DNA from: Bryobacterales bacterium
Lineage (GTDB): Bacteria > Acidobacteriota > Terriglobia > Bryobacterales > UBA6623
Length of the DNA: 64,000 nt
NCBI GenBank assembly: GCA_965216545.1
Contig: OZ244172.1
Coordinates: 3,654,763-3,718,762, forward strand
Direction of reading: 5' to 3'
Shown here: positions 1,330 through 45,800 of the stretch, in pieces
How the letters are laid out: every line of letters starts with the position of its first letter
Numbering within the stretch: the first letter of the stretch is position 1
The notes under the pieces: model-generated
The model's database searches: none
The model's input: only the letters and a program-made list of their open reading frames with translations
Told to the model about the DNA's origin: nothing
Position numbers and translations under genes: made by a program

Positions 1330-1622
1330 GTTGGGCCTGAGTTTAGCACTGGTCGCGCTCGGCCGGCCATGCCCAGATCCGTTCGGTAAGGGCATAGCGC
1401 GGGCGGAGAAATGCCGAACAAGGCCTGGAGTTGGCGCGCGGGGTCGCGTGAGCGGTCGCGGGACAGCGTAGGCGGGGCGCTGGCGGGAGTCGTGCCGCGA
1501 TCAGACGCAGCTCAACCGTGGCCGCGGCGGCGGCGAGGCCCAGCCAGGCTCCCCAGTCCTTACCCACGGATAAGAGGCGGAGCGGTTGCATCGCGGGCGT
1601 CCGCGTGGCATGCTGATATGGC

Positions 1623-1637
1623 GAACAAAAAGCGAAT
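1623..1637 (+). promoter_or_regulatory. candidate SOS (LexA-type) operator upstream of imuA
   Basis: GAAC-N7-GAAT direct repeat (gaacaaaaagcgaat) ends 7 nt before the imuA ATG. It is one mismatch from the GAAC-N7-GAAC/GTTC-N7-GTTC box reported for Alphaproteobacteria and Acidobacterium capsulatum. Based on motif and position only. Confidence 0.3.
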
Positions 1638-1643
1638 ATCGAG

Positions 1644-2333
1644 ATGGCCGCCTCCGCCAAGCTTCAACAGCTCGAGACTTTGCTCCGCCAGCGCGGGCTT
1701 GGGCGTGCTTTGCCGACGGCGGACAAGCCTGTGTACAAGCCGCTGCCGACCGGCAGAGCGGAGGTCGACCGCCGTCTGGGCGGCGGGTTGCCGCGCGGGG
1801 CGATCAGCGAAGTTGTTGGCCCGGAGTCGTCGGGGCGGACGTCATTGTTGTTCTCGGCGCTAGCCCGGGCGACGCAAGCGGGTGAGGTGGCGGCTTACAT
1901 TGACGCGACCGATTGTTTGGATCCGCGCTCGGCGGAGCAGGCTGGCATCGTGCTGGAGCGGTTGCTGTGGGTGCGCTGCGACTCGCGGGAGAGGCCGCGC
2001 TACGAGCGCCTGCGCGAGCAGCCGGCGGATCAGGCTTGGCAGGCGGTGAACCTAGTCGCGGCGGCGGGCGGCTTCGGGCTGATCGTAGCAGACTTGGGCG
2101 GGCTCTCCCGCCGCAAGCTCGGCGAATGGCAGCGCCGGCCGTGGGTGCGGCTCAGGCAAGCGATCGAGCATACCGCGACCGCGCTGACGGTGCTGGCGGA
2201 GCGGCACGTGGCGCAGGGCGCGGCCACGTTCGGCCTAGGAGGGACAAGGGACGGTTTGGGGACAAGGGACAGGGGTTTGGGGACAAGGGACCGGGGACAA
2301 GGGATAAGAGGACGGTTGTTGGAGGTGGCCTGA
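1644..2333 (+). CDS. imuA: ImuA, RecA-like protein of the imuA-imuB-dnaE2 mutagenesis cassette
   Basis: Degenerate RecA Walker-A-like motif GPESSGRTSLL and synteny with imuB and dnaE2. The C-terminal ~30 aa (GTRDGLGTRDRGLGTRDRGQG...) are encoded by the heptamer array, so the native C-terminus may have been altered. Confidence 0.8.
   Translation: MAASAKLQQLETLLRQRGLGRALPTADKPVYKPLPTGRAEVDRRLGGGLPRGAISEVVGPESSGRTSLLFSALARATQAGEVAAYIDATDCLDPRSAEQAGIVLERLLWVRCDSRERPRYERLREQPADQAWQAVNLVAAAGGFGLIVADLGGLSRRKLGEWQRRPWVRLRQAIEHTATALTVLAERHVAQGAATFGLGGTRDGLGTRDRGLGTRDRGQGIRGRLLEVA
2241..2307 (+). repeat. G-rich heptanucleotide tandem array L1 (GGGACAA family)
   Basis: Seven phased units at 2259-2307: GGGACAA GGGACAG GGGTTTG GGGACAA GGGACCG GGGACAA GGGATAA. 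Two further units lie at 2241-2254 and a stray GACAAGGGA at 2342-2350. The array sits in the imuA 3' end. Confidence 0.9.
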
Positions 2334-2749
2334 TGCTTAGAGACAAGGGACGAGGAGCAGGAGCAGGGGAGAAGGTTCGGAGCTACCGGGATCTCAAGGT
2401 TTGGCAGAGGGCGATGGATTTGGTGGAGCAGAGCTATCGCTTGGCGGCAATGCTGCCCTCACACGAGCTGTATGGATTGGCAACCCAGATTCGCCGTGCT
2501 GCTGTTTCCGTTCCCGCCAACATTGCGGAGGGGAACGGACGCGAGCACGTTGGCGACTACCTGCATCACGTCTCCATCGCTCATGGCTCGCTCATGGAGT
2601 TGGAAACACATTTCCTCATTGCGATTCGTCTTACGTACCTCCAGCCTGATCAAATTGAGCCGGCTTTCGAATTGACTACCGAAGTCGGCCGCATGCTAGG
2701 TGGTCTTCGTAAGAGTCTGAAGACGAAACGAAGCTCCAGGGGGAGGTAG
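2333..2749 (+). CDS. four-helix-bundle protein, 23S rRNA intervening-sequence / Avd family (TIGR02436, PF05635-like), copy 1
   Basis: Family-typical sequence SYRDLKVWQRAMDLV...QIRRAAVSVPANIAEGNGR...GSLMELETH. The ATG overlaps the imuA stop (TGATG) and GGAGG lies at 2321-2325. It corresponds to the C-terminal 138 aa of track ORF 1913..2749. Confidence 0.85.
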   Translation: MLRDKGRGAGAGEKVRSYRDLKVWQRAMDLVEQSYRLAAMLPSHELYGLATQIRRAAVSVPANIAEGNGREHVGDYLHHVSIAHGSLMELETHFLIAIRLTYLQPDQIEPAFELTTEVGRMLGGLRKSLKTKRSSRGR

Positions 2750-2754
2750 CTTCC

Positions 2755-2783
2755 TTGTCCCTTGTCCCCGGTCCCTTGTCCCC
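2755..2783 (-). repeat. C-rich heptamer array R1, inverted copy of L1
   Basis: Four phased units TTGTCCC TTGTCCC CGGTCCC TTGTCCC. Positions 2758-2783 are the exact 26-nt reverse complement of 2279-2304. Confidence 0.9.
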
Positions 2784-4296
2784 AGAGGGACCCTTGCCGC
2801 TCTTTGCAGCTTTGTATGTCGCTGACTTCGCTGTTGCAGCGTTGATCCGCGGCGAAGCGTACAGCCCCGCTACCGGGGTGATCGAGGGCGAGCCGCCCAA
2901 TCAGTTCGTCTGTACGGCCGATGAGGCGGCCCGCGCCGGCGGCGTACAGATCGGCATGCCGCTGGCCGCGGCCACCGCACGTTTCGCCTATGTCACTCGG
3001 GGCGAGGATCTGCGCATCCTCGAGCGCGACCCGGCGGCCGAAGCCCGCGCGCAGCGTGACTTATTGCGAGCAGCCGAAAACGCCACCCCACGCTATGAGG
3101 ATTCCGCGCTGGGGCTGGCGACGCTCGACTTCAGCGGATTGCGTGAGCCGCATGTGGCGGCGCGCAAACTTTATACAGAGGCGGAGGCGCTGGGGTTCAC
3201 GCCTCAGCTTGGGGTTTCGCGCAACCGCTTCGTCGCATTATGCGCCGCGCGCACACAGCCAGGATTGACGCATGTCTACCCCGGAGAAGAGGCAGGCTTT
3301 CTCTCGGTCCAGGGGCTCGACGTGCTGCCAATGGAAGCAGCCGAGATCGAAACGCTCGCACGCTGGGGCGTCCGCACGGTCGGCGAGCTGGCGCGCTTCA
3401 GCGAGAACGACCTGACAGCGCGCTTCGGCGAACGCGGCGCGCGGTTGGCGCGACTGGCGCGTGGCGAAGAAGCGTCGGTGATTGAGGCCTACACCGCGCC
3501 GCTCGAGCTCGAGGAGCGCCAGGAGTTCGACTGGGAAGTCGGAGAGCTCGAGCCGTTGGCGTTTGCGCTCTCGGGGATGCTCGAGCGGCTGTGCTTGAAG
3601 CTGCAGGGTCACAACTTGGCGGCGGCGCGCGTGGAGACCAAGCTCGAGCTTGCGAGCGGGCGGTTGTTCGCTCGCAAGATCGATTTGCCGTATCCGCTGA
3701 CCGACCCGCGCACGCTGCTCAGACTGGTGCGGCTCGATCTCGATGCGCATCCCCCAGGCGACGCCATCGTGGCCGCCCGCGTCGCCGCCGCGCCCACCGA
3801 GCGGCGTCGCGTGCAGTTCTCGCTCTTCGCGCCTGCCGCGCCGAGCCCGGAGAAGCTGGCTGTGACGCTGGCGCGCCTCTCGGGCCTGGTGGGCGCCGAG
3901 CGCGTGGGCGCTCCGGTCGCGCCGGACACGCACAAGCCGGGAGCGGCGGCGTTGGCGCTGTTCGCACCATCGCAAAGGGACAAGGGACAAGGGACAAAGG
4001 GACAAGGGACAGGGGACAAGAGAGGCGGCTCGCGTGAAGAACGCATCTTCCGCGTCTTCCGTCCGCCCTGGCGCGCCAAGGTCGAGACCCAAGCGCACGA
4101 GCCGGCGCATCTGGAGTCGCTCGATGTCGCCGGCCCCATCGAATCCAGCTCCGGCCCCTGGCGTGTTTCCGGCGAGTGGTGGAGCCCGGAGGGCTGGCAA
4201 TACGAGGAATGGGATGTGCTGGTGCAGGGGCGTATGTATCGGGCTTGCTTTGATCGGTTGAGCCGGGAGTGGTTTGTCACGGGGGCGTACGATTAG
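2755..4296 (+). CDS. imuB: ImuB, Y-family-polymerase-like protein
   Basis: N-terminus LFAALYVADFAVAALIR, typical size, and position between imuA and dnaE2. The TTG start at 2755 lies inside the repeat (GGAGG at 2740-2744). An alternative TTG at 2794 would give MPLFAALYV. Confidence 0.8.
   Translation: MSLVPGPLSPEGPLPLFAALYVADFAVAALIRGEAYSPATGVIEGEPPNQFVCTADEAARAGGVQIGMPLAAATARFAYVTRGEDLRILERDPAAEARAQRDLLRAAENATPRYEDSALGLATLDFSGLREPHVAARKLYTEAEALGFTPQLGVSRNRFVALCAARTQPGLTHVYPGEEAGFLSVQGLDVLPMEAAEIETLARWGVRTVGELARFSENDLTARFGERGARLARLARGEEASVIEAYTAPLELEERQEFDWEVGELEPLAFALSGMLERLCLKLQGHNLAAARVETKLELASGRLFARKIDLPYPLTDPRTLLRLVRLDLDAHPPGDAIVAARVAAAPTERRRVQFSLFAPAAPSPEKLAVTLARLSGLVGAERVGAPVAPDTHKPGAAALALFAPSQRDKGQGTKGQGTGDKRGGSREERIFRVFRPPWRAKVETQAHEPAHLESLDVAGPIESSSGPWRVSGEWWSPEGWQYEEWDVLVQGRMYRACFDRLSREWFVTGAYD
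3977..4019 (+). repeat. GGGACAA heptamer array inside imuB (third copy of family 1)
   Basis: Six GGGACAA-type heptamers in tandem (five GGGACAA, one GGGACAG, with one extra A after the third unit), translated in frame as QRDKGQGTKGQGTGDKRG. Positions 3977-3992 are the exact complement of 2753-2768. Confidence 0.9.
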
Positions 4297-4298
4297 CG

Positions 4299-4347
4299 GG
4301 TGCTGGGGGCTAGGTGTTAGGTGCTAGGTGCTAGGTGCTAGGTGCTG
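4299..4347 (+). repeat. G-rich heptanucleotide tandem array L2 (GGTGCTA family)
   Basis: Seven phased units: GGTGCTG GGGGCTA GGTGTTA GGTGCTA GGTGCTA GGTGCTA GGTGCTG. The array starts 3 nt after the imuB stop. Confidence 0.9.
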
Positions 4348-4373
4348 GGCGTTGGCTGATACGGAGGATTGAA

Positions 4374-4724
4374 ATGATTCGGAGTTATCGCGATCTTCAT
4401 GTTTGGCAGCGGGGGATGGATCTTGTTCTTTGCTGCTACGGCTTAGCCAAGAAGCTTCCAAGCGATGAGCTTTACGGATTGACGAGTCAGATTCGCAGAG
4501 CCGCCGTTGCTATACCTGCCAACATCGCCGAGGGGCACGGCAGAGACCACATCGGCGACTACCTGCGCCATCTCTCGATCGCCTCTGGATCGCTCACAGA
4601 GCTGGAAACCCACATCCTGATCACCGAAAGACTCTCGGCTATCTCTCTGAAGCCGACACTTCGATCTTTCATACCCAAGCCACTGAGCTGGGCCGCATGC
4701 TCTCCACTCTGTCAAAGAAGTTGA
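4374..4724 (+). CDS. four-helix-bundle protein, IVS/Avd family, copy 2 (C-terminus disrupted by an apparent +2 frameshift)
   Basis: MIRSYRDLHVWQRGMDLV...QIRRAAVAIPANIAEGHGR...GSLTELETH, with GGAGGA at 4363-4368. After ...ITERL (4634) the family-like sequence GYLSEADTSIFHTQATELGRMLSTLSKKLKARR continues in another frame, 4637-4756. Confidence 0.8.
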   Translation: MIRSYRDLHVWQRGMDLVLCCYGLAKKLPSDELYGLTSQIRRAAVAIPANIAEGHGRDHIGDYLRHLSIASGSLTELETHILITERLSAISLKPTLRSFIPKPLSWAACSPLCQRS

Positions 4725-4746
4725 AGGCCCGAAGAACCTCTTCCCC

Positions 4747-4781
4747 CAGCACCTGACACCTAACACCCAGCACCTAGCACC
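4747..4781 (-). repeat. C-rich heptamer array R2, inverted copy of L2
   Basis: Five phased units CAGCACC TGACACC TAACACC CAGCACC TAGCACC. Positions 4766-4781 are the exact complement of 4334-4349. The array ends 6 nt before the dnaE2 ATG. Confidence 0.9.
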
Positions 4782-4787
4782 ATTTAA

Positions 4788-7700
4788 ATGACCGAAATCC
4801 ACGCAGCCTCCGGTTTCAGCTTCCTCGAAGGCGCCTCCGACCCCGAGGACCTCGTCGCCGAAGCCAAGCGCCTCGAATACGAAGCCGTCGCGCTTTGCGA
4901 TCGCGACTCCGTCTCCGGCGCGCCGCGCTTCTTCAAAGCCGCCAAGCAAGCGCGCATCAAAGCGTTGGTCGGCGCCGAAATCTCGCTCGACCAACCGGGC
5001 GTCAAAAAGGGCGTCCGCAACGCCGAGCTCGACCGCCGCCTCACCGTGCTGGTCGAGAACCGCCGCGGCTACCAGAACCTCTGTCGCCTGCTCACGCGCA
5101 TGAACCTGCGCGCCCCCAAGGGCGAAGGGCGCGTCACTTGGGACGACCTCGACGACTTCTCCTCCGGCCTCGTCGCCCTACTGCACGACCTGCGCGACGA
5201 GGACCCAGTACGCGGCATCTTCGGCTCGCGCAACGTCTACGTCGAGCTGCAACGCCACATGCGCCGCGAGCAGGAGCGCGACAACCAGGCGCGCATCGAG
5301 CTCGCTCGCCGCTACGGGCTGCCGCTGGTCGCCTCGAACGGCGTGCGCTACGCCACCGAGGCGCGCAAGCCGCTCTACGACGTCTTCACCTGCCTGCGCT
5401 ACAAGCGCAAGCTCGATACTGTCGGCCGCTTGCTCGACGCGAACGCCGAGCGCTACCTCAAGCCGCAACGGTCTCTCGAGTATCTCTTCCGCGATCTGCC
5501 CGAAGCGCTCGCCAATGCGAGTGAGCTTGGGCGCCGGCTCGACTTCACGCTCGGCAATCTCGGATACGAGTTCCCGAAGTATCCGTTGCCGCCCGGCGAG
5601 ACAAATACCTCGTTCCTGCGCAAGATCGCCCTGCGCGGCGCCGCCGAACGCTACCGCGATTCGCCACATCGCGAGAAGGCTCTGCGGCAGATCGACCACG
5701 AGCTCGCCGTCATCGAGCGACTCAACCTCGAAGGCTATTTCCTGATCGTGTGGGACATCGTCGAGTTCGCGCGCAAGAACGGCATTCTGTGCCAAGGCCG
5801 CGGCTCGGCGGCGAACTCGGCCGTATGCTACTCCTGCGGCATCACCGCCGTCGACCCGGTCGGCATGGAGCTGCTCTTCGAGAGGTTTCTCTCCGAGGAG
5901 CGCGGCGAGTGGCCCGACATCGACGTCGACTTGCCCTCGGGCGACCAGCGCGAGCAGGTGATCCAACACGTCTACCGCCGCTACGGCGAGCGTGGCGCCG
6001 GCATGACGGCCAACGTCATCACCTACCGCGGCAAGATGGCCGTGCGCGAGGCGGGCAAGGTGCTGGGCTTTCCGGAGGAGATGATTGCGCGCCTGTCGAA
6101 GTGTATCCACAGCTTCGAGTACACCGACGACAATGACAAGCTCGTCTCGCAGGCCGTCGCCGCCGGCTTCGACGCTTCGCACCCGCGCGTCGGCCACCTG
6201 TTGCGCACTTGCATGCAGATGCAGGGGCTGCCGCGGCACCTGGGCCAGCACTCGGGCGGAATGGTGATCTGCCAGGGCGATCTCGACGCCGTCGTGCCGC
6301 TCGAGAATGCGTCGATGCCCGGCCGCGTCGTCGTGCAGTGGGACAAGGAGGACTGCGCTGACCTCGGCGTCATCAAGGTCGACTTGCTCGGCCTCGGCAT
6401 GATGGCGGCGCTCGAGGAGAGCGTCGAGACCATCCGTTCGCGGGGCGGAGACTTCGACTTGGCGCGCATCCCGCCCGATGATCCCGCGACTTACCAGATG
6501 ATCCAGAAGGCGGACACGGTCGGCGTGTTCCAGATCGAGAGCCGCGCGCAAATGGCGACGCTGCCACGCATGCGGCCGGATCATTTCTACGATCTGGTCG
6601 TAGAGGTGGCCATCATCCGCCCCGGGCCGATCACGGGCAACATGGTGCACCCGTATCTGGCGCGGCGGCAGGGCAGGGAGCCGGTGACCTATCCGCACCC
6701 CTCGCTCGAGCCGGTGTTGAAGCGCACGCTCGGGGTGCCGCTGTTCCAGGAGCAGTTGTTGCGCGTGGCTATGGTGGCGGCGAACTTTACCGGCGGCGAG
6801 GCCGAAGAGCTGCGCCGGGCGATGGGCTTCAAGCGCTCGGTCGAGCGCATGGGCTCGATCGAGCGCAAGCTCCGTGAGGGCTTGGCCGAGAACGGCATCG
6901 AGGGCGAGGCGGCGGAGCAGATCGTACGCTCGATTACTTCGTTCGCACTGTATGGATTTCCGGAGTCGCACGCGGCGAGCTTCGCTTTGCTCGCCTACGC
7001 GAGCTCCTATTTGAAGTGCCACTACCCGGCGGAGTTTCTGACAGCGTTGCTCAACTGCCAGCCGATGGGCTTCTACTCGCCGGCCGTGCTCGTCAGAGAT
7101 GCGCAGCGGCACGGCGTGCGGGTGCGGCCGATCGACGTGGCGTTGTCAGGGGCTAGGTGTCAGGTGCTGGGCGCTGGGGAGATGCGGTTGGGGTTGCGGT
7201 TTGTCTCGGGGCTCAGGGCGGAGGCGGCGGAGCGCATTGTGGGGCTGCGGCCGTATCGCTCGATGGAAGACTTCGTGCGACGGACGCGCTTGGCGAAGAC
7301 GGAGCTGGACGTGCTGGCGGAGATTGGGGCGCTGAACTCGCTAGGAGAAGGCGTCCACCGGCGCGAGGCGTTGTGGCAGATCGAGAGGGCGTATCGCCCG
7401 GCGGGGCCGCTGTTCGAGTCCCAAGACGACCGGCTGCCCGAGCCGGGGCCGCTGGCCAAGATGATGCCGCTCGAGCGGCTCGACGCCGACTATCGCGGGG
7501 CGGGCCTGACGACGGGGCCGCACCCGATGCACTACCTGCGGCCGGCGCTAGCCGATCGCAACGTGCACAGCGCGCGCGACCTCGAGTCGATCGCCCACGG
7601 CCGCCGCGTGCGTGTGGCCGGCGCGGTCATCACGCGGCAGCGACCGGGCACGGCCAAGGGCTTCTGCTTCATCACGTTGGAGGATGAAACTGGAGTTTCG

Positions 7701-7877
7701 AATCTGATTCTCACCCCGGACGTGTTTCAGGAGCACCGGCTGGCCGTGCTGCAGGAGTCGTTCCTGATCGGCGAGGGGTCGCTACAGAAGGTCGACGGCA
7801 CGATCGCGGTGAAGACGGACTTCGTCGAGCCGATGGGGGCGATCGAGCTCGAGATGGAGTCGCATGATTTTCATTAG
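4788..7877 (+). CDS. dnaE2: error-prone DNA polymerase DnaE2 (Pol III alpha-like, ImuC)
   Basis: 1029 aa with an N-terminal PHP domain (HAASGFSFLEGAS) and Pol III alpha core motifs (GRGSAANSAVCY, PDIDVD, GMVI, FQIESR). Lies in synteny after imuA and imuB. Confidence 0.92.
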   Translation: MTEIHAASGFSFLEGASDPEDLVAEAKRLEYEAVALCDRDSVSGAPRFFKAAKQARIKALVGAEISLDQPGVKKGVRNAELDRRLTVLVENRRGYQNLCRLLTRMNLRAPKGEGRVTWDDLDDFSSGLVALLHDLRDEDPVRGIFGSRNVYVELQRHMRREQERDNQARIELARRYGLPLVASNGVRYATEARKPLYDVFTCLRYKRKLDTVGRLLDANAERYLKPQRSLEYLFRDLPEALANASELGRRLDFTLGNLGYEFPKYPLPPGETNTSFLRKIALRGAAERYRDSPHREKALRQIDHELAVIERLNLEGYFLIVWDIVEFARKNGILCQGRGSAANSAVCYSCGITAVDPVGMELLFERFLSEERGEWPDIDVDLPSGDQREQVIQHVYRRYGERGAGMTANVITYRGKMAVREAGKVLGFPEEMIARLSKCIHSFEYTDDNDKLVSQAVAAGFDASHPRVGHLLRTCMQMQGLPRHLGQHSGGMVICQGDLDAVVPLENASMPGRVVVQWDKEDCADLGVIKVDLLGLGMMAALEESVETIRSRGGDFDLARIPPDDPATYQMIQKADTVGVFQIESRAQMATLPRMRPDHFYDLVVEVAIIRPGPITGNMVHPYLARRQGREPVTYPHPSLEPVLKRTLGVPLFQEQLLRVAMVAANFTGGEAEELRRAMGFKRSVERMGSIERKLREGLAENGIEGEAAEQIVRSITSFALYGFPESHAASFALLAYASSYLKCHYPAEFLTALLNCQPMGFYSPAVLVRDAQRHGVRVRPIDVALSGARCQVLGAGEMRLGLRFVSGLRAEAAERIVGLRPYRSMEDFVRRTRLAKTELDVLAEIGALNSLGEGVHRREALWQIERAYRPAGPLFESQDDRLPEPGPLAKMMPLERLDADYRGAGLTTGPHPMHYLRPALADRNVHSARDLESIAHGRRVRVAGAVITRQRPGTAKGFCFITLEDETGVSNLILTPDVFQEHRLAVLQESFLIGEGSLQKVDGTIAVKTDFVEPMGAIELEMESHDFH
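7149..7176 (+). repeat. GGTGCTA-family heptamer array inside dnaE2 (third copy of family 2)
   Basis: Four phased units GGGGCTA GGTGTCA GGTGCTG GGCGCTG, translated as GARCQVLGAG. Positions 7154-7171 are the exact 18-nt complement of 4745-4762. Confidence 0.85.
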
Positions 7878-44153: not shown

Positions 44154-44951
44154 TTGAACGTAGCGACCCTGTTTGCCTTGCTTCTTCAAGCCGCTCCCGC
44201 CCCCGAAGAGGCCCCAACCGAAGAAATGATCGACGAGGCGCTCTCGTCGAGCGTGGTCGAAACCGGCCTGCTCGACATGGTGCTCGATGCCAGTCTGCTC
44301 TCGCAGGTTGTGCTCGTCGTGTTGCTCGGCTTCTCAGTGCTCTCTTGGGCGATCGCGTTCTCCAAGAGCGGGCTGCTCAAGAAGGCGCGGCGCCAGGACG
44401 TGCTGTTCCTCAAGGCCTTTCGCCGGGTGGGCAAACTGGCCGAGATGAATGCGGCCGCCGAGCGCTACCGTCCCGCGCCGCTGGTCTCGATGTTCGAGTA
44501 CGGCTACGAGGAGCTCGCCCGGCAAGTCAACAAGTACGGTCGCATTCGCTCGGGCGACGCCATCGAGCGCGTCATGCGTTTGGCGGCGAACGAGGAAACC
44601 TCGCGGCTGAGCAAGCACATGGGCTGGCTGGCGACCACCGCTTCCGCGACCCCGTTTATCGGGCTCTTCGGGACGGTTTGGGGCGTGCTCGAGTCCTTCC
44701 GCGGGCTCGGCGCCGCCGGCGGGGCCACGCTGCGAGCCGTCGCGCCGGGCATCGCCGAGGCGCTGATCGCGACGGCGTTCGGTCTGTTCGCGGCCATTCC
44801 GGCCCTGATTTTCTACAACCACTTCTCGCAGCAGATCCGCGAGATCCGCTCCCGCATGGAAGACTTCGGCCTGGAGTTCTACAACTTGGCCGAACGCGAC
44901 TACGGCGAAGACGATGGCGTTTACGAACAAACACGATCTGTCCGCCAATGA
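44154..44951 (+). CDS. tolQ: MotA/TolQ/ExbB proton-channel protein
   Basis: ATTASATPFIGLFGTVWGV motif; first gene of the tol-pal cluster. Start uncertain (TTG at 44154). Confidence 0.85.
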   Translation: MNVATLFALLLQAAPAPEEAPTEEMIDEALSSSVVETGLLDMVLDASLLSQVVLVVLLGFSVLSWAIAFSKSGLLKKARRQDVLFLKAFRRVGKLAEMNAAAERYRPAPLVSMFEYGYEELARQVNKYGRIRSGDAIERVMRLAANEETSRLSKHMGWLATTASATPFIGLFGTVWGVLESFRGLGAAGGATLRAVAPGIAEALIATAFGLFAAIPALIFYNHFSQQIREIRSRMEDFGLEFYNLAERDYGEDDGVYEQTRSVRQ

Positions 44952-45342
44952 CGACCCGCTGGCCGAGATCAACGTCACGCCGTTCGTCGACGTCGTGCTC
45001 GTGCTGCTGATCATCTTCATGATTACCGCCGCGGTGGTCGAGCTCGGTCTGCGCGTCGACGTGCCGCCCACGACCGCCCGCGTCGCGCAGCAGCAGGATC
45101 CCAAGGTCCAACGGCTCGAGCTGGGCGACGACGGCCGCATGGTCCTCGACGGCAAGTCGGTCAGCTTGTATGACATCGTTCCCGCCGCCAAGCAGGCCAA
45201 CCCGGAAAAGCCCGCGCTCTACATTCGCATTCACAAGAGCGCCCGCTGGGAAGACGTGGCGCAGGTGATGGCCGAGTGCCGCGCCGGCGGCGTGGAGATC
45301 AACCTCATCCCGCGCCCGCTCACCAGGAATCCGCGAGGATGA
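44914..45342 (+). CDS. tolR: ExbD/TolR family protein, copy 1
   Basis: [22 protein letters not shown]. Confidence 0.85.
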
Positions 45343-45353
45343 GAAGCGACTAG

Positions 45354-45800
45354 ATGGCGTTTTCGATCAATGGAGGGTCCGACCGCAACGAGCCGATGTC
45401 GGCGATCAACGTCACGCCGTTCGTCGACGTCGTGCTGGTGCTGCTGATCATCTTCATGATCACCGCCGGCGTGTTCGATTTCGGCCTCGAGATCGACGTA
45501 CCGCAGACGCGCGAGATCGCCGCCTCGCAGCTCGAGTACCCCTTCGTCAACATCACCGGCACGGGCGAGATGTACTTCAATACCGAACCCGTCTCGTTCG
45601 ACGATCTCACCGATCGCATCCTCGAAGAGCAGCCGGTGCTGCTCGAGGGCCAGGACCCCGGCGTCTACATCCGCGCGCACCGCACCACGCCTTGGGAGGT
45701 GATCGCTCCCATCGTCGATCGCTGTGGCCGCGCCAAGATCGCGGTCAACATGGTGACGAAACCGCTCGAGAAGAACCCGAATCCAACTCCTGAGGAATGA
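45354..45800 (+). CDS. ExbD/TolR family protein, copy 2
   Basis: [22 protein letters not shown]; paralog of the preceding gene. Confidence 0.85.

Follow-up and report, generated by a model that had tools for sequence, protein, structure and literature searches.

A four-helix-bundle gene between inverted heptamer arrays: a probable selfish cassette of intervening-sequence type in a bacterial imuA-imuB-dnaE2 operon

Introduction

What is a small gene for a four-helix-bundle (4HB) protein doing between imuA and imuB, enclosed by two inverted arrays of a GGGACAA heptamer? The locus lies in a 64,000-nt window of contig OZ244172.1 from a Bryobacterales bacterium, in an operon with the gene order imuA-4HB-imuB-4HB-dnaE2 (coordinates are positions in this window, the operon features described all lie on the forward strand, and L001, L035, L082 and similar numbers are labels of compared loci). 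We consider it probable that the segment 2239-2802 is a selfish cassette of the same kind as the intervening sequences (IVSs) of rRNA, residing here in an mRNA operon and consisting of a promoterless 4HB gene with its own ribosome-binding site and two inverted heptamer arrays.

The finding bears on three puzzles, namely the role of the very common 4HB/S23p genes, the origin of rRNA IVSs and the abundance of heptameric tandem repeats; it joins the first two and suggests a link to the third. An IVS-type cassette in an mRNA operon, present twice and with remodelled neighbours, is new. So, judged by sequence comparison, is the generality across the family of inverted, lineage-specific heptamer arrays which co-evolve and move with the 4HB gene and are able to invert it. 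In the open-access literature we found no paper linking 4HB/S23p genes to flanking heptamer arrays in general, and a prior description elsewhere is possible.

Inverted heptamer arms enclose a gene of the intervening-sequence family

The left arm (2239-2313) is built of G-rich GGGACAA-type heptamers and the right arm (2753-2784) of C-rich TTGTCCC-type heptamers, as delimited by Tandem Repeats Finder (TRF) and inverted-repeat comparison. An earlier note on this DNA, made from the letters alone, had described phased heptamers on both sides, with further units from 2241 on the left. These correspond to period-7 arrays at 2259-2313 (7.7 copies) and 2753-2782 (4.3 copies) and to a period-21 array from 2241. 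The stray unit which the note had seen beyond the left array is also real and lies at 2339-2351, where it supplies codons of the 4HB gene. We recovered the note's exact 26-nt reverse complement between 2279-2304 (GGGGACAAGGGACCGGGGACAAGGGA) and 2758-2783; with one mismatch the complementarity reaches 31 nt (97%; 2278-2308 with 2754-2784), and in weaker form it continues on the right to 2802. Both complementary stretches sit within the period-7 arrays. The window holds 16 exact copies of GGGACAA, compared with 4.6 ± 2.1 in shuffled sequences (none of 100 shuffles reached 16), and 12 of them fall within 2241-4019. All five arrays of the window contain at least three tandem copies of a 7-nt unit (7.7, 4.3, 6.4, 6.9 and 4.6 copies by TRF).

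When 2200-2820 was folded as RNA, the predicted closing stem enclosed the entire open reading frame (ORF) 2333-2749 (z = -4.2), as the note had proposed, and the 31-bp pairing was retained in a larger fold of 2200-4060. Its suggestion that the stem could form in several registers agrees with the alternative arm pairings listed by the inverted-repeat comparison. An Rfam search detected no family and no rRNA in 1400-5200.

The enclosed gene (4HB gene 1, 2333-2749) encodes a protein of 138 aa of the S23p / 23S_rRNA_IVP / Avd-like type. It matches PF05635 (E 1.7e-35, 121.8 bits, cut-off 33.8) and TIGR02436 (E 1.5e-34, 118.5 bits, cut-off 24), a family named after the ORFs of 23S rRNA IVSs. Its closest relative of solved structure is Xcc0516 (PDB 2GSC, E 9.5e-23), deposited with five chains and described as a homopentamer (PMC4990558). 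A Shine-Dalgarno-like GGAGGTG (2321-2327), read from the sequence, lies in the stem loop between the left array and the start codon, in a block (GGAGGTGGCYTGATG) conserved in L001 and L082. The imuA stop TGA (2331-2333) overlaps the ATG of the 4HB gene (2333-2335) as TGATG, and the 4HB stop lies 5 nt ahead of TTG 2755. In comparisons with orthologues, dN/dS was 0.08-0.12 for 4HB gene 1, 0.005 for the first 86 codons of the second 4HB gene and 0.05-0.13 for imuA and imuB; the 4HB proteins are under purifying selection. PADLOC gave no defence-system match, and viral_contigs contained no close relatives of the 4HB protein.

ORF-bearing IVSs of 23S rRNA were reportedly treated by Ralph and McClelland in 1993. 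Such IVSs are found in helix 45 in Leptospira, Coxiella burnetii and Brucella (Warrier et al. 2016, PMC4990558), and genes of the 23S_rRNA_IVP type have been noted in rRNA insertions of the candidate phyla radiation (PMC11270868). The C. burnetii IVS carries two to three GACAGAT heptamers, in strain-variable number, 5' of its S23p ORF and inside a 28-bp stem; RNase III cleaves this stem in vitro, and the ends were located by rapid amplification of cDNA ends (PMC4990558). The window cassette shares with these elements the PF05635/S23p protein, the placement of the ORF within terminal inverted repeats with a stem of more than 25 bp, and tandem heptamers of variable copy number in the arm 5' of the ORF. 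It differs from them in being flanked by imuA and imuB instead of lying in helix 25 or 45 of 23S rRNA, and in having arms that are partly translated, as imuA tail and imuB head; moreover, excision would here break an mRNA and not fragment an rRNA.

The layout recurs across the 4HB family

To place the cassette in its family we used 80 metagenomic loci with 4HB homologues at 46-66% identity, 74 of which had enough flanking sequence. RNAduplex on 170-nt flanks separated the loci poorly and was dropped for local alignments, with the inverted-repeat threshold set at the 95th percentile of a cross-locus control. Above this threshold, inverted repeats flanked the ORF in 61 of the 74 loci (median score 42 vs 16 in the control), and 55 of these 61 had a period-7 arm. 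The heptamer itself differs among loci (AGGTGTC, AGATGTC, GAGTGGC, AGGATTG, GGGACTG, GCGAATG and others). The downstream unit is nevertheless the reverse complement of the upstream unit, with 0-1 mismatch, in 45 of 51 loci, against a cross-locus null of about 10%. Variant units are mirrored at corresponding positions of the two arms, and the G-rich arm is nearly always 5' of the ORF on the coding strand. In all 52 cases with a co-directional upstream gene, the stop codon of that gene was at most 50 nt from the cassette, and the arm lay wholly within the upstream coding sequence at only seven of these 52 loci, three of which represent the orthologous imuA/imuB locus. Neighbours are co-directional in about 75% of cases on each side, a value not clearly above genomic background and unused as evidence.

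Named genomes with the inverted-array layout are Anabaena sp. 90, Calothrix (C. brevissima), four Nostoc strains (among them N. edaphicum, N. punctiforme and Nostoc sp. C052), Geminocystis, Stanieria, Gemmatirosa and Picosynechococcus. The cassettes often lie within cas, nrd or tra operons; that of Anabaena sp. 90 is situated between cas6 and cas4, and that of N. edaphicum antisense inside an nrd operon. Only one of the 80 loci lies in rRNA. This locus, L035, is a true 23S rRNA IVS with GGGGCGA-type arms, and its 4HB protein, of the same subfamily, is 54% identical to the window homologue. Because the window ORF belongs to the IVS protein family, L035 is a genuine rRNA member and the Coxiella IVS carries heptamers, the likeness to 23S rRNA IVSs, which the earlier note had put forward as one of topology, is raised to homology. 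On these comparisons the inverted heptamer cassette is a family-wide, mobile architecture and not a peculiarity of the imuABC operon.

Some loci depart from the common pattern. Octamer units replace the heptamers in L094 (Gemmatirosa plasmid) and L100 (Picosynechococcus PCC 7003) (CTCCTGCC; GGAGATAA). The arrays of L099 (Pseudanabaena galeata) are very long, with 16 copies of AAAGCTA upstream and about 10 of AAAAGCC downstream in the usual polarity, and an inverted copy lies further upstream. On the cyanobacterial plasmids L089, L099 and L100 the cassettes are located in CRISPR-Cas operons, twice between cas6 and cas4 and once between cmr2 and cmr3. The presence of 23S_rRNA_IVP genes in cas loci (cmr3/cmr2) has been interpreted as Cas association, with the flanking arrays undescribed (Zhang & Ye 2013, PMC3936711). 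The same gene family between operon genes, at cas6/cas4 and cmr2/cmr3, is what we see; in contrast to that interpretation, the imuABC context shows the host operon to be incidental, and the flanking arrays suggest repeated insertion of the cassette into CRISPR-Cas operons. Hence 4HB genes in cas or repair operons should not be taken as functional partners of those systems.

Movement, inversion and decay of the cassette

L002 and L004 are 83% identical over a stretch that begins within the left array and runs through the whole of the right one, and their flanks are unrelated. The distance between heptamer units rises smoothly with protein divergence. As far as sequence comparison can show, the 4HB gene and its arms form one evolutionary unit that occurs in unrelated contexts, and the heptamer drifts along with the protein. 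The cassette at L048 (2406-2954), set against L040 (2406-2955) and L065 on contigs 94-95% identical, is inverted as a whole relative to its flanks, with breakpoints inside the AGATGTC arrays; at least one cassette has thus, by alignment, been inverted between its own arms. Arm copy number varies between relatives in a microsatellite-like manner, and the two arms remain complementary base for base. No direct repeats suggestive of a target-site duplication were found at the outer arm ends of 45 loci, where array dynamics could have erased them. Of the features expected of a DNA transposon or miniature inverted-repeat transposable element (MITE), occupation of non-orthologous sites is therefore seen (L002 vs L004) and target-site duplication is not.

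Several sequences near cassettes look like derivative forms. Inverted heptamer pairs of 58-177 bp that lack an ORF occur at L064 1233-1360, L038 5183-5359, L071 54-207 and L067 2267-2324, and the unit of the L064 pair is identical to that of the neighbouring cassette. A truncated cassette at L002 4312-4657 has a divergent 4HB subfamily and GATTCCA arms. Seven is the commonest tandem-repeat period in the locus contigs (55 entries in 200 kb), followed by period 9 with 27. The cassette occurs in rRNA helices and operon spacers (cas, nrd, tra, imuABC) and would decay to ORF-less hairpins or solo arrays. The ORF-less pairs resemble ORF-less IVSs and hairpins of the MITE or repetitive extragenic palindromic (REP) type in being short, two-armed, inverted and located in transcribed spacers; they differ in that cassette arms are tandem arrays rather than a unique terminal inverted repeat and have no target-site duplication. 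We know of no transposase for the ORF-less inverted heptamer pairs.

History of the imuA/imuB junction

The earlier note had claimed that the insertion remodelled both neighbouring genes and had called for an alignment of orthologous junctions, which we made. The host genes are imuA (1644-2333; RecA-fold and ImuA-like, with Pfam RecA and NCBIfam ImuA matches), imuB (2755-4296; Y-family polymerase-like, Pfam IMS/IMS_C) and, as the last gene of the operon, dnaE2 (4788-7877; an error-prone DNA polymerase III alpha paralogue, from Pfam PHP/DNA_pol3_alpha matches of the L082 and L083 orthologues). The last ~31 codons of imuA (2239-2333) consist of the left heptamer array and a short conserved tail, LLEVA. 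The opening codons of imuB, counted from TTG 2755, fall in the right arm, which holds two candidate starts, TTG 2755 and TTG 2776. Comparison of the junction with L083, L085 and L087 aligns the ancestral start position with TTG 2794.

Ranked by ImuB identity to the window, the relatives are L082 (85%), L001 (80%), L083/L084 (78%), L085 (65%) and L087 (61%). L082 has both cassettes, with an intact second 4HB gene and array copy numbers unlike those of the window. L001, a Bryobacterales metagenome-assembled genome, carries cassette 1 at the same junction and has neither cassette 2 nor an adjacent dnaE2. The 4HB gene is missing from L083/L084, where about two units (GGGGACAAGGGAG) are left at the imuA end, followed by unrelated filler, and imuB begins at an ATG without the right arm. 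In L085 and L087 imuA and imuB overlap or abut without heptamers, which represents the empty site, and ImuA has a longer, different C-terminus. The junction is thus filled in the closer relatives and empty in the more distant ones, and the remodelling is borne out. In the cassette-bearing clade the ancestral C-terminal segment of ImuA is gone, and the protein closes with array-encoded residues followed by LEVA. No start codon remains at the ancestral imuB position in L001, so the arm-encoded codons must be translated there. As shown by the aligned junctions, the insertion of cassette 1 is old and common to the closer relatives. The arrays are highly prone to changes in length and can thereby reshape the ends of adjacent proteins, as with ImuA and ImuB.

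In L083 a REP-like hairpin (ACAGAGCCGTGGG[A/T]GTAA[T/A]CCCACGGTCC; 4750-4790 and 6228-6266) adjoins both heptamer remnants, which correspond to the imuA end and to the solo array in imuB described below, and an antisense ORF of ~55 codons occupies the former cassette site. Other small elements may be drawn to heptamer sites.

RNA stem, DNA arms or protein-bound arrays

A motif 5' of imuA (1586-1640; TTGCAT ... TGGCATGCTGATATGGCGAACAAAAAGCGAAT), almost unchanged across six loci whose ImuB identity is 61-85%, is probably the promoter/operator region of the operon, and no other obvious signal for transcription precedes the cassettes. Neither a sigma-70-like promoter nor a convincing terminator was found in 1350-4900. 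With no internal promoter or terminator and a conserved motif ahead of imuA, a single read-through transcript is the simplest expectation. The motif also contains a direct repeat, GAAC-N7-GAAT, which resembles direct-repeat LexA boxes, and it may serve as SOS operator/promoter of the operon.

On our preferred reading the cassette would be transcribed through read-through from this single region. Whenever the arms are free of ribosomes, the transcript would fold into a 26-31 bp duplex. RNase III would act on this duplex as it does on those of the rRNA members, cutting the operon mRNA there and releasing the 4HB message; the arms of cassettes in general would predict RNase III processing sites within operon mRNAs. 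Complementarity of the arms would be kept mainly by concerted evolution at the DNA level and not by RNA selection, candidate homogenising processes being recombination or gene conversion between the inverted arrays, or template switching from one to the other. On this view RNase III would have to cope with an RNA duplex that is a by-product. We hold the RNase III step on the imuA-4HB-imuB mRNA to be about as probable as its opposite, and are much more confident in classing the element as an IVS-type cassette.

Selection on a stem in the sense RNA should bias transition mismatches between the arms towards G·U. Over 68 arm pairs we counted 76 mismatches of the G·U type and 75 of the A·C type, a strand-symmetric distribution, and selection on the sense-RNA stem thus left no signal in this test. 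Together with the inversion at L048, this lack of a G·U excess indicates a strand-symmetric process at the DNA level that keeps the arms alike.

Several points weigh against the cassette reading as we have put it. The mismatch counts argue against the RNA duplex as the target of selection. Both arms of cassette 1 are translated, an atypical placement, and coupled translation would often open the stem. The cleavage of the operon mRNA by RNase III is extrapolated from the rRNA members. With neither a target-site duplication nor a transposase or recombinase found, the word mobile rests on comparison only. Furthermore, strong purifying selection implies that the 4HB protein has some function, which the cassette model leaves unstated.

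The first two of these points also feed the most serious alternative, that the arrays act as DNA only, as terminal inverted repeats and recombination substrates of a cassette that can move or invert, with an mRNA stem that is incidental, rarely formed and unprocessed. We regard this as possible, at clearly lower probability than the IVS-type cassette. The inversion of L048 with its breakpoints in the arrays speaks for it, as do the variant units mirrored between arms, which copying between arms predicts. However, stem formation and cutting by RNase III have been demonstrated for the rRNA members (PMC4990558), this enzyme would hardly overlook a perfect 26-31 bp duplex in a transcript, and a purely DNA role leaves unexplained why the G-rich arm is nearly always 5' of the ORF. 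The strong selection on the protein fits another reading, in which a pentameric 4HB ring would bind its own heptamer array, as RNA or DNA, with one unit per subunit, and thereby autoregulate the gene or mobilise or protect the cassette, unit and protein co-evolving. Arrays of about 4-6 units flank a gene whose homologue Xcc0516 has five chains in PDB 2GSC and is called a homopentamer (PMC4990558). The rise of unit distance with protein divergence and the ORF-less pairs that share a cassette's unit (L064), like non-autonomous derivatives, would fit as well. A further homologue, Avd, seen through a PHROG match, is a nucleic-acid/reverse transcriptase-binding accessory protein of diversity-generating retroelements (DGRs). 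Yet co-inheritance explains the correlation of unit and protein equally well, octamer variants exist in Gemmatirosa and Picosynechococcus, and array length ranges from 2 to more than 16 units, so that we consider ring binding unlikely.

Two explanations confined to the operon appear very improbable. The stem could be a locally evolved regulator of an SOS mutagenesis operon, or the 4HB proteins accessories of an ImuA-ImuB-DnaE2 mutasome by analogy with Avd in DGRs. The Avd-like fold would suit this idea, and so would two cassettes in one three-gene operon, both retained over a dS of about 1 or more at dN/dS of 0.005-0.12. Against it, dozens of unrelated settings, cas, nrd, tra and rRNA among them, show the same architecture, and so do the relatives argue: L083/L084 lost both cassettes yet retain imuA-imuB-dnaE2, L001 is without cassette 2, and L085 and L087 never had cassettes. 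Equally remote is the view of the arrays as contingency repeats for phase variation. Seven is not a multiple of three, so a change of one unit would shift the imuA frame, and one added unit would fuse ImuA to the 4HB protein; the left array lies in coding sequence, ORF 1913-2749 reads through it without a stop into the 4HB gene, and copy number varies both among relatives and between strains in the Coxiella IVS (PMC4990558). But the window, L082 and L001 all have an in-frame imuA with a LEVA tail at different unit numbers, which points to selection against frameshifts, and in most cassettes the arrays are non-coding.

Beyond the IVS-type cassette itself, a broader reading can be offered tentatively, and we would sooner doubt it than rely on it: 4HB cassettes, ORF-less heptamer hairpins (including ORF-less rRNA IVSs) and solo arrays may all belong to one widespread element family, respectively as autonomous-like, non-autonomous and relic forms, with the pentameric 4HB protein recognising the arrays. 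If this were true, the heptamer excess in bacteria (short tandemly repeated repetitive sequences, STRRs, of cyanobacteria, GGGAATC of Xanthomonas, GGGACCG of Geobacter, TAACTGA of Beggiatoaceae) would be the footprint of the family, and the two imuABC copies would be hitch-hikers expressed upon DNA damage.

Relation to other repeat systems

Heptameric simple sequence repeats have been described as G-quadruplex formers in Xanthomonas and Nostoc, with GGGGA(C/T)T STRR and GGGAATC units and 70-75 convergent pairs in Xanthomonas (Rehm 2015, PMC4692102), as possible translational signals in the case of TAACTGA of Beggiatoaceae (MacGregor 2015, PMC4679880), and as 'global regulator sites' in the case of GGGACCG and MTYCTGA of Geobacter metallireducens (PMC2700814). 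Like the cassette arms, they consist of tandem 7-nt units, usually in 3-6 copies, often G-rich and mostly intergenic, with frequent convergent inverted pairs, and STRR-like GGGACTG and GGGAATC recur as cassette units in L039 and L062. Unlike the arrays studied here, which bracket a 4HB gene and co-evolve with it, those repeats are treated as G-quadruplexes or regulator-binding sites without mention of 4HB genes (PMC4692102, PMC4679880, PMC2700814). A G-quadruplex was rejected as a general explanation, many units having no GGG run (AGATGTC, GCGAATG, AGGTGTC, GATATCA).

A DGR was likewise rejected. The 4HB protein shares a homologous four-helix-bundle fold with Avd and gives weak matches to bAvd (PF22296), NCBIfam DivGenRetAVD and PHROG 3206, but its DivGenRetAVD score is 40.1 bits against an equivalog cut-off of 80. 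No reverse transcriptase was found among the 4HB neighbours (imuA, imuB, dnaE2), in a reverse transcriptase domain scan that covered only part of the window ORFs. A self-BLAST of the window returned no pair of template and variable repeats; its sole matches were the second copy of the 4HB gene and a pair of tolR/exbD paralogues. An integron gene cassette would have a single 3' attC hairpin, whereas here repeats flank the ORF at either end, and none of the neighbours encodes an integrase.

The second cassette and further features of the window

Cassette 2 (4299-4781) fills the spacer between imuB and dnaE2 and repeats the layout of cassette 1 with a different heptamer. Its left arm (4299-4355) consists of GGTGCTA heptamers and its right arm (4745-4781) of TAGCACC-type heptamers (TRF, inverted-repeat comparison), the latter stopping 6 nt before the dnaE2 ATG at 4788; the predicted RNA fold of 4286-4800 encloses the gene between them. 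This 4HB gene 2 (4374-4757) matches PF05635 with E 7.8e-30 over profile positions 1-86 of 106. Its ORF ends at 4724 owing to two extra nucleotides (TC, in a CTCTC run at ~4631-4636) relative to the intact orthologue in L082 (6626-7000). Conservation of the shifted frame extends to about 4757, and identity over the first 86 codons is 99% at a dS of about 1; the extra TC would reflect a sequencing error or a frameshift of very recent origin.

A solo GGGACAA array of 6.4 units without an ORF (3975-4020) lies inside imuB, where it codes for a low-complexity linker. It is complementary to the right arm of cassette 1 and can pair with it, more weakly than the left arm does (-68.8 vs -88.7 kcal/mol, fold of 2200-4060). 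L082 and L083 have the array as well, and L001 has a degenerate version. The linker that it encodes in ImuB is variable, and L001 (7227-7253) reads GGGGACAGTCCCAAGGGACAGTCCCCG at that place, two small palindromes each composed of a left-type and a right-type half unit, which could be the scar of an arm-to-arm collapse.

The tolR/exbD pair returned by the self-BLAST (44913-45067 and 45353-45504, 80% identity over 157 nt) belongs to adjacent paralogues in a tolQ-tolR-tolR-tolA/tonB-tolB cluster.

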